32,000 nt of DNA, taken from NCBI RefSeq assembly GCF_900079115.1, contig NZ_LT549890.1, positions 2,520,001 to 2,552,000 of the forward strand, written 5' to 3'. Below the pieces are notes generated by a model. It was given only the letters and a program-made list of their open reading frames with translations, searched no databases and was not told the origin of the DNA. This DNA is from Saccharolobus solfataricus (lineage in GTDB: Archaea > Thermoproteota > Thermoprotei_A > Sulfolobales > Sulfolobaceae). How positions within the stretch are numbered: position 1 is the stretch's first letter; each line of letters begins with the position of its first letter. Both the position numbers and the translations under genes were made by a program. This document shows, piece after piece, positions 3,227 through 4,760 of this stretch.

Positions 3227-3357
3227 TATACTCTTTCTTAAAAAATATAAACATTTCTTATTAACAAGTACTATTGTTGTTTTTGCTCTAGAAATGAAGT
3301 TTATGTTCTCTTTATTGGAAGTTCAATTTTATATTTTAAATGTGGAATCTCACATGA

Positions 3358-4488
3358 ATGGTTGCAATTATTGACGCAAGCATAACCCGATTCGGAAAGA
3401 GAAAGGAGAGCTTATTAGAGCTTGCTGGAGAGGTTGCATTACCATTAATAGGGAAATACGAAATTGATTTTGTAGTAGTTTCTAACAGCTATTCTGGGGA
3501 GTTTAACTCCTTATCTGGGATAAATAATTTAATTACAACTTATTTATCAGTAGATAAAGTACCATCAATTAGGGTCGATAATACTAGTGGAAGTGGGGGT
3601 TCTGCAATATTGGTAGCTAAATCACTACTTGATTCTAAAATTACTAAAACTGTATTAGTCTTAGGAGTCGAGAAGATGTCTGAGAAGAATACCAAACAAG
3701 TTACATCTGTCATAGCCTCATTATTATCACCGGAGGAAAAAATTGTCGGACTAACTCTACCTTCACTAGCAGGATTAATGACTAAGGAGTATATGAGGAG
3801 ATATAACGCGTCCAGAGAAGCCTTTGCCTTAGTAGCAGTCAAAAATCACTATAACGGATCTTTAAATCCCTTTGCTCACATACAGAAGGTGGTGTCATTA
3901 GAGGAAGTTTTGAATTCCCCTATCATAGCAGATCCCTTAACCCTTTACGAATTTACCCCAATTAGTGATGGGGCTTCAGCAATAGTTATGGTAAGGGATG
4001 AGGACGCTTATAGTTTTACCAAGAAGCCTGTATTTATAAAAGGTATGGGTGCTTCTTCAGATACGTCATATTTATCTGAACGTGAGGATATATTAACAAT
4101 GAATGCGGTGAGAATTGCTGGATTGACCGCTAGGAAAATGGCAAAGGTTGATAAGGTTGATTTCGCTGAGCTTCACGATATGGCCACAGTTCTGGAAATA
4201 GTTGAGGCTGAAGAGTTAGGCTTATTAAAGAAAGGAGAAGGATGGAAAGCATATTACGACGACTACACCAAAATTAATGGCGAAATGCCAATAAACACTA
4301 GTGGAGGGTTAAATTCTAAAGGTCATCCAATAGGGGCAAGTGGTATAGCCCAAGCAGTTGAGGCATTTTTACAAATTAGGAATCAAGCGGGAAGTAGGCA
4401 AGTTAGAAATGCTAGAGTTGGGCTATCCCTAAGTATGGCTGGTTTCGGAAATTCCGCAACTGTAATAATTTACGGTGATGAGCCTTGA
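3358..4488 (+). CDS. Thiolase-fold protein (SCP-x/archaeal acetyl-CoA acetyltransferase-like) lacking all cysteines
   Basis: 376 aa with thiolase landmarks: N-terminal VAIIDASITRFGK, VLVLGVEKMS, PISDGASAIVM, NTSGGLNSKGHPIGASG. The expected nucleophile motif C-[AG]-S-G reads S-G-S-G (Ser77, codon AGT at 3586-3588). The translation contains no Cys. Confidence 0.8.
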   Translation: MVAIIDASITRFGKRKESLLELAGEVALPLIGKYEIDFVVVSNSYSGEFNSLSGINNLITTYLSVDKVPSIRVDNTSGSGGSAILVAKSLLDSKITKTVLVLGVEKMSEKNTKQVTSVIASLLSPEEKIVGLTLPSLAGLMTKEYMRRYNASREAFALVAVKNHYNGSLNPFAHIQKVVSLEEVLNSPIIADPLTLYEFTPISDGASAIVMVRDEDAYSFTKKPVFIKGMGASSDTSYLSEREDILTMNAVRIAGLTARKMAKVDKVDFAELHDMATVLEIVEAEELGLLKKGEGWKAYYDDYTKINGEMPINTSGGLNSKGHPIGASGIAQAVEAFLQIRNQAGSRQVRNARVGLSLSMAGFGNSATVIIYGDEP

Positions 4489-4751
4489 TCTATGTATGTA
4501 AAAATTGCGGTTATTCGTTTTGGGTTAAGAGGGCCAGATGTCCAAGGTGTTATTCAACTGAATTTAACATTAAGGATAATATAAGAGAGGGGGAACTACT
4601 AACATCGTGGAAATTGTCTGCTACTCCAGAGGGATTTGAAGATAAGTATTGGCTTTGTCTAGTCAAAGTCGATAATGTGAAAGTATTCTGTAGATCCTTA
4701 AGTGAGCCTAAAAATAAAATGGTGTTAAAAGAAAATGGCTTATGTGAACCA

Positions 4752-4760
<9 letters not shown>
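4485..4760 (+). CDS. DUF35-type zinc-ribbon/OB-fold protein (thiolase partner)
   Basis: 91 aa. CKNCG-x11-CPRC rubredoxin-like ribbon followed by a short beta-rich tail. The TTG start overlaps the thiolase stop (TTGA at 4485-4488), and this is the usual archaeal position next to a thiolase gene. Confidence 0.65.

Follow-up and report, generated by a model that had tools for sequence, protein, structure and literature searches.

Two overlapping genes on the forward strand of Saccharolobus solfataricus are probably those for the two subunits, alpha and beta, of an archaeal beta-ketothiolase of the two-subunit, or "haloarchaeal-type", kind. They lie in a stretch of 32,000 nucleotides (nt) that was analysed as a whole and is referred to here as the window (contig NZ_LT549890.1, positions 2,520,001 to 2,552,000), in which the gene for the catalytic-type alpha subunit (3358..4488, +) encodes a 376-aa protein of thiolase fold and the beta gene (4485..4760, +) a 91-aa protein of the DUF35 family. 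An earlier, sequence-only reading of the window had singled out the pair because a serine stands where thiolases carry their nucleophilic cysteine, and had implied that this was new. The oddity is real but largely known: judged by its sequence relationships, the pair belongs to an already described family of two-subunit ketothiolases with a Ser-His-His active site. The enzyme type was described by Hou et al. in 2013, and the structure of an orthologue of the alpha subunit has been solved (4YZO).

The alpha protein matches the Pfam families Thiolase_N (PF00108, E 2.6e-25, 89.7 bits) and Thiolase_C_1 (PF22691, E 5.8e-45, 153 bits), and it matches the solved structures 4YZO, 7YVY and 6ESQ over the full length, which places it in the thiolase superfamily, and there in the archaeal/SCP2-like branch. 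Among the NCBIfam thiolase models, none reaches its cut-off with this protein (best NF004720, 358.6 against 420 bits). Canonical archaeal acetoacetyl-CoA thiolases (ACATs) are characterized by the motifs CxS, HDxF and GHx (PMC12960953). When the window protein is aligned by HMMER with the archaeal thiolases 7YVY and 6ESQ, Ser77 (codon AGT, 3586..3588, +), within the motif D-N-T-S-G-S-G-G, falls under the nucleophile cysteine of "aaCaSGG", so that S-G-S at residues 77-79 stands opposite C-a-S and the CxS motif is absent. The second loop, His273-Asp274-Met275 (codons CAC GAT ATG, 4174..4182, +), is a version of the archaeal HDxF/HDCF loop; its ELHDMA aligns with "evHDcF" of 6ESQ, with HD kept, Met275 in place of the HDCF cysteine and the Phe of HDxF lost, whereas the haloarchaeal branch has Phe at this position (HDMF). 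The GHP loop, the GHx of canonical ACATs, is kept as GHPIGASG with His323 (codon CAT, 4324..4326, +). The sequence-only reading was thus right about the thiolase fold, the position of Ser77 and the retained histidine motif; its choice of Y-D-C-F as the canonical form of the second loop needs correction, the archaeal form being H-D-x-F or HDCF.

What drew attention to the protein, namely that its translation contains no cysteine at all, is uninformative as a signal. Cysteine has a frequency of 0.58% in the whole genome, and 196 of its 721 open reading frames (ORFs) of 300-450 aa (27%) have none, so that the absence of cysteine from a protein of this size is unremarkable. The signal beyond chance lies in conservation: Ser77, His273, Asp274, Met275 and His323 are invariant, each being present in 120 of 120 of the best database relatives of alpha (56-100% identity), from Saccharolobus, Sulfolobus, Sulfurisphaera, Acidianus, Metallosphaera, Sulfodiicoccus, Thermoplasmatales, Sysuiplasma and Marsarchaeota. 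The further claim that other customary cysteines have been replaced holds for the window protein, with Met275 for the cysteine of HDCF, but it does not extend to the family, since 55 of the 120 relatives do have the cysteine of "DCxPxSDG" (position 200). Remoter members (38-48% identity), from Desulfurococcales, Micrarchaeota and Halobacteria, retain the T-S ... HDM ... GHP signature. The serine is encoded by AGY in Thermoproteota and Thermoplasmatota and by both AGT and TCY in Halobacteria, and this use of both codon families across the wider clade argues for selection acting on the serine itself.

These conservation data refute the notion that the protein is a strain-specific, decayed thiolase created by a recent Cys-to-Ser mutation (TGT to AGT), which has almost no chance of being correct even though AGT is a single transversion from TGT. 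Under such a scenario orthologues with cysteine at the site had been envisaged; instead, serine is found in all 120 relatives checked and at 15 of 15 orthologous loci, spanning at least four phyla, and the ORF is intact. Moreover, the same motif occurs in the crystallised orthologue from Sulfurisphaera (Sulfolobus) tokodaii, ST0096 (72% identity). This protein provides the closest solved structure (4YZO, "putative acyl-CoA acyltransferase", E 9e-169), matches alpha over its full length and has identical DNTSGSGG, ELHDMAT and GHPIGASG motifs; unlike the window pair, the structure was deposited without a beta subunit. A literature search found no dedicated paper on 4YZO/ST0096; its sole mention is as a structural neighbour of PhlC.

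A function for proteins of this kind is suggested by work on Haloferax mediterranei. According to reviews of Hou et al. (2013, AEM 79:5104), this species uses two beta-ketothiolases of the "haloarchaeal type", BktB (HFX_6004/6003) and PhaA (HFX_1023/1022), to make poly(3-hydroxybutyrate-co-3-hydroxyvalerate) (PHBV). As these reviews relay it, the two enzymes convert acetyl-CoA and acetyl- or propionyl-CoA into short 3-ketoacyl-CoA, and BktB supplies 3-ketoacyl-CoA for PHBV in vivo. Their alpha subunits are reported to have Ser-His-His in place of Cys-His-Cys, point mutants of Ser-His-His to abolish function, and an OB-fold beta subunit to be indispensable for each enzyme. A tblastn search of plasmids with a haloarchaeal member of the family gave a match on pHM500 of H. 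mediterranei, of which the third gene encodes a "hypothetical protein" of 120 aa and the fourth a "3-ketoacyl-CoA thiolase" of 383 aa, the two overlapping by 4 nt; by gene order, these are assigned to HFX_6003 and HFX_6004, the latter being BktB-alpha.

BktB-alpha is 43% identical to the window alpha over the full length (E 3e-104) and has the motifs QTSSSGG, ELHDMF and KGHPLGASG, with Ser77, His273 and His323 of the window protein aligned with its Ser83, His281 and His331. An IQ-TREE analysis (LG+C20, 73 rows) places both proteins in one 23-row clade with a Shimodaira-Hasegawa-like approximate likelihood ratio test (SH-aLRT) value of 99, consistent with a FastTree analysis of 157 rows. The clade also holds the Sulfolobales, Thermoplasmatota and Desulfurococcales relatives and chromosomal haloarchaeal orthologues, and within it serine is at the nucleophile position in all rows and methionine at position 275 in all but one. 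It is this identity, together with the shared clade, that argues for membership of the window pair in the described ketothiolase family, and the Ser-His-His published for haloarchaea would map onto Ser77, His273 and His323. Those marks of the haloarchaeal type that a sequence can show are all found in the window: the Ser-His-His residues, an adjacent, overlapping DUF35 beta gene, and common descent with BktB-alpha. Of the two roles that the sequence-only reading had offered, non-catalytic scaffold paralogue or Ser-dependent acyltransferase, the second fits better, since it agrees with the Ser-His-His of BktB and PhaA, and the scaffold role is the weaker.

In BktB and PhaA, as in the window pair, two co-transcribed genes overlap by 4 nt, one for an alpha subunit of thiolase fold with T-S at the nucleophile site, HDM and GHP, the other for a small OB-fold/DUF35 beta subunit. 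They differ from it in that the window beta, at 91 against 120 aa, is the shorter and retains the complete C4 zinc ribbon, that the window alpha has HDMA where theirs has HDMF, and that the activity reports concern the haloarchaeal rather than the Sulfolobales/Thermoplasmatota branch. The physiological role must also differ from that in H. mediterranei, because the host of the window has no recognisable polyhydroxyalkanoate (PHA) synthase.

The beta protein carries a CxxC...CxxC arrangement forming a C4 zinc ribbon at Cys5, Cys8, Cys19 and Cys22, and reaches 27.1 bits against PF12172 (zf-ChsH2, the DUF35 zinc ribbon; cut-off 23.2). The OB-fold family PF01796 (OB_ChsH2_C) has no sequence match in the window beta, and longer orthologues fall just below its cut-off of 27.1, with 25.0 (L010), 26.8 (L090) and 26.6 (L107). 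In a Foldseek search of the PDB with the AlphaFold model of beta (mean predicted local distance difference test score 88), the top 15 matches listed are all DUF35 proteins, among them BbsA (7PXP, TMq 0.78), Trf (6HTJ), ChsH2 (6OK1), PhlB, MucABC, 6ESQ_F of the thiolase/HMG-CoA synthase complex, Shy-DUF35 and SSO2064. These matches indicate that beta is a genuine DUF35 protein, modelled as a zinc ribbon and an OB fold and trimmed of its N-terminal helices, the usual N-terminal helical segment of the family being absent. A word-based homology search with the 91-aa protein gave five close matches only, and the beta orthologues were collected from the orthologous loci, where beta-type genes encode 69-120 aa; the four cysteines, Pro48 and Gly50 are invariant among them.

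The beta ORF has a TTG start codon, which runs into the TGA stop codon of alpha (TTGA, 4485..4488, +). This start is validated by loci of the S. acidocaldarius type, which have ATG at exactly the same position. The 15 orthologous loci examined, from Sulfolobaceae, Sysuiplasmataceae, other Thermoplasmata, Desulfurococcales and Halobacteria, all have a small gene of the zinc-ribbon/OB kind directly downstream of alpha, and in 10 of them, BktB alpha/beta included, the genes overlap by 4 nt (ATGA, GTGA or TTGA). The proposal of a translationally coupled, DUF35-like partner is thus borne out by profile, model and orthologues. Beyond the pair, no conserved neighbour was found at nine Thermoproteota and Thermoplasmatota loci or at five haloarchaeal loci; in the latter, conservation nearby is limited to HflX and DUF7547, whose proximity looks like local synteny. 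The gene context therefore gives no clue to a pathway.

On the model of related complexes (BbsAB, Ltp2-ChsH2, PhlABC and the thiolase/HMG-CoA synthase complex), an alpha dimer would probably be clamped by two beta subunits, giving an alpha2beta2 assembly in which beta would be made by translational coupling. Ser77, at the N-terminus of the active-site helix, would act as the acyl acceptor, activated by His323, while His273 of HDM and His323 of GHP, the retained histidines of the oxyanion and activation sites of thiolases, would form an oxyanion hole for the thioester enolate and Met275 would fill the place of the acid/base cysteine. By analogy with BktB and PhaA of Haloferax mediterranei, the most likely reaction would be the reversible thiolysis/Claisen condensation of short 3-ketoacyl-CoA, and the window pair may share their activity.

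Several observations weigh against a ketothiolase function. A seryl ester is an oxyester and as such a poor acyl donor for Claisen chemistry. There is no evident substitute for the acid/base cysteine, which Met275 cannot replace. The published evidence for BktB and PhaA, as relayed by the reviews, is largely genetic (PHA accumulation), and ordinary thiolase activity, which the sequence-only reading had named as a ground for refutation, is reported in this genetic form for BktB, a clade member of 43% identity, and not for the window protein. BktB-alpha has three serines in a row (S83-S85), any of which could be the one mutated. The window beta lacks the N-terminal segment whose deletion, according to the same reviews, cut PHA synthesis by 93% for PhaA-beta, with little effect for BktB-beta. 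The genome encodes no PHA synthase above cut-off, and its thiolases already include two of the bacterial type and two Cys-bearing ones of the archaeal type, so that the need for another ketothiolase is not obvious. The pair was found in only 4 of the 7 other Sulfolobaceae genomes sampled (E <= 1e-100). Finally, the Ser/Met clade is nested within a larger, well-supported Cys-less clade (47-48 rows) in which sister lineages carry Pro, Phe or Thr at the position of Ser77, and a nucleophile at this site is therefore not required across the wider clade.

Such considerations bear on the view that alpha is catalytic but no thiolase, its two-His oxyanion hole binding an acyl-CoA thioester and stabilising the enolate for a non-covalent reaction, with Ser77 in a structural or hydrogen-bonding role. 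Candidate reactions would be the decarboxylation of malonyl- or methylmalonyl-CoA or another C-C or C-H reaction. We regard this as unlikely, although it accounts for the invariance of both histidines, Asp274 and the N-x-S-G-G...GHP loop, as expected of a working pocket, and for the Pro, Phe or Thr of related Cys-less lineages, given which the ancestral function of the clade cannot need a nucleophile at position 77. DUF35-partnered thiolase folds have, moreover, been repurposed before, examples being the aldolases Ltp2 and Sal and the Friedel-Crafts acylases PhlC/MucB, and Cys-to-Ser and Cys-to-Gln variants of ketosynthases, as well as an SCP2-thiolase-like protein of T. brucei, show malonyl decarboxylase activity. 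Yet a member of the clade, BktB, is the reported source of 3-ketoacyl-CoA for PHBV, the serine is strictly invariant inside the Ser/Met clade through both codon families, the aldolase tyrosine (YDHF, YDCY) is missing from the HDMA of the window protein, and no conserved neighbouring gene points toward another pathway. A related and equally doubtful proposal is restricted to the Sulfolobales/Thermoplasmatota branch, in which the Ser/Met alpha and the trimmed DUF35 protein would form no ketothiolase but catalyse another reaction of CoA esters, with the two-His oxyanion hole serving for decarboxylation or enolate chemistry, or else Ser77 for O-acyl transfer. It is kept alive by the Cys-less sister lineages with Pro, Phe or Thr, the lack of a PHA synthase and the canonical thiolases already present, and for this branch a scaffold role is less likely still.

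Three better-known systems were considered as possible identities for the pair and rejected. The steroid side-chain aldolases Ltp2-ChsH2(DUF35) and Sal-Shy(DUF35) resemble it in having a thiolase fold without a cysteine nucleophile, which in their case needs a DUF35 partner; 6OK1_A matches alpha (E 1e-18), and the beta model matches 6OK1_B and 9MYR_B. In these bacterial enzymes, however, the DUF35 domain is fused to a hydratase, and their catalytic tyrosine (YDHF, YDCY) corresponds to a histidine in the window alpha (HDMA); an aldolase of this type is therefore excluded. DpsC, a priming ketosynthase like 3-ketoacyl-acyl carrier protein synthase III (KAS III) and the precedent named in the sequence-only reading, uses Ser-His-Asp; its fold is of the thiolase superfamily, and a serine takes the place of the nucleophile cysteine. 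Within the superfamily it falls in another branch, it is not known to have a DUF35 partner, and the window alpha is no member of the KAS III/DpsC family, scoring 19.5 bits against a cut-off of 292 for TIGR00747 and 16.5 against 24 bits for PF08545.

The third system is the archaeal complex of thiolase, HMG-CoA synthase and DUF35 protein, which the sequence-only reading took the pair to mirror. The thiolase of that complex belongs to the same sub-branch as the window alpha (E 5e-51), has the same kind of DUF35 partner and shares the HD... and GHP loops; it differs in having Cys85, HDCF and an operon with HMG-CoA synthase, where the window has Ser, Met and no adjacent HMG-CoA synthase gene. The sole HMG-CoA synthase above cut-off in the genome lies at 476535-477572, about 2 Mb from the window pair, in a mevalonate operon (476535-480294) that has its own thiolase-like and DUF35 genes besides HMG-CoA reductase, and a comparison of neighbourhoods found no HMG-CoA synthase near any orthologous locus of the pair. 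Membership in the mevalonate complex is accordingly rejected. The thiolase-like protein of the mevalonate operon is itself unusual: it has 359 aa and no cysteine, with Asp at the nucleophile position (VDNADASGG against "ieaaCasgg" of 7YVY) and HDSY rather than HDCF, so that, by its sequence, the "thiolase" of the Saccharolobus HMG-CoA synthase complex may be something other than a canonical thiolase. Among the representative clusters, Asp or Glu is common at this site.

The genome holds eight archaeal/SCP2-type thiolase-like genes, each followed by a DUF35 gene, and the nucleophile cysteine is present in only two of them (2666787-2667944 and 2462735-2463877), the others having Ser, Asp or Gly. 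That six of the eight lack it could be taken to mean that the window pair, too, is a non-catalytic pseudo-thiolase, serving only as a scaffold or binding module for proteins or RNA, in the manner of Trf in translation recovery. Trf (Sso2509), with its reported non-metabolic role, is the DUF35 partner of one of these Cys-less paralogues, and the fatty-acid synthase complex of S. acidocaldarius uses DUF35/thiolase pairs as assembly hubs. Against this stand the active-site motifs of the window family, which are invariant across several archaeal phyla where other Cys-less paralogues are degenerate (GGAS, GGPS, YDSF), the reported loss of function of Ser-His-His point mutants in the haloarchaeal homologues, as the reviews give it, and the lack of a conserved third partner gene; a purely non-catalytic role is consequently improbable.

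The Trf gene (PDB 6HTJ; E 9e-79) lies at genome positions 2347678-2349191, where it overlaps by 4 nt the end of a gene for a 380-aa thiolase-like protein whose nucleophile position is occupied by Gly ("VQYGGPSVLS", YDSF); neither an operon nor a thiolase neighbour is mentioned in the paper on the structure of Trf. The well-supported clade of 47-48 representative clusters (P0125-P0258) without cysteine at the nucleophile site has Ser, Pro ("ENGPASG"), Phe or Thr there, mostly with HDAF, and no characterised member was identified in it. Several of its members have ~480-540 aa, a length that suggests fusion with an extra domain.

A contig search with generic thiolase patterns gave at least 80 loci; among the 80 listed, four belong to the Ser/Met family. 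The Metallosphaera orthologue lies at 1266692-1267825 on contig 1 of its genome, and its position relative to the other thiolase paralogues tentatively suggests that it is Msed_1290 of M. sedula. Liu et al. (2020, PMC7078158) count that gene among the ketothiolase candidates, as an uncharacterised one with lower expression during autotrophic growth. Msed_0656, which has been characterised, is not a protein of the Ser/Met type. Upstream of the pair in the window, an A/T-rich, TATA-like stretch (tttatatttta; 3327-3338, +) can be read ~20-30 nt before the ATG at 3358, which would agree with leaderless transcription of the alpha/beta operon. An antisense 100-aa ORF inside the alpha gene (3540-3842, -) is not a gene, its recurrence in orthologous loci being a shadow of the conserved coding strand.

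The labels under which these proteins are annotated, such as "acetyl-CoA acetyltransferase" and "thiolase family protein", miss the absence of both catalytic cysteines. The enzyme type is known; tying the Sulfolobales and Thermoplasmatota genes to the haloarchaeal Ser-His-His ketothiolases and to the orphan structure 4YZO gives them a concrete, testable function. A literature search found no structural explanation of cysteine-free Claisen chemistry on the thiolase fold, and the pair offers a thermostable system in which to work it out. The finding also bears on the multiple thiolase/DUF35 pairs that have been invoked for archaeal fatty-acid synthesis: since only two of the eight archaeal-type pairs in this genome carry the canonical cysteine, pair counts alone overstate ketothiolase capacity. 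Should these proteins instead catalyse another reaction of CoA esters, the large clade of Cys-less, thiolase-like proteins with Ser, Pro or Phe would constitute an unrecognised enzyme class.

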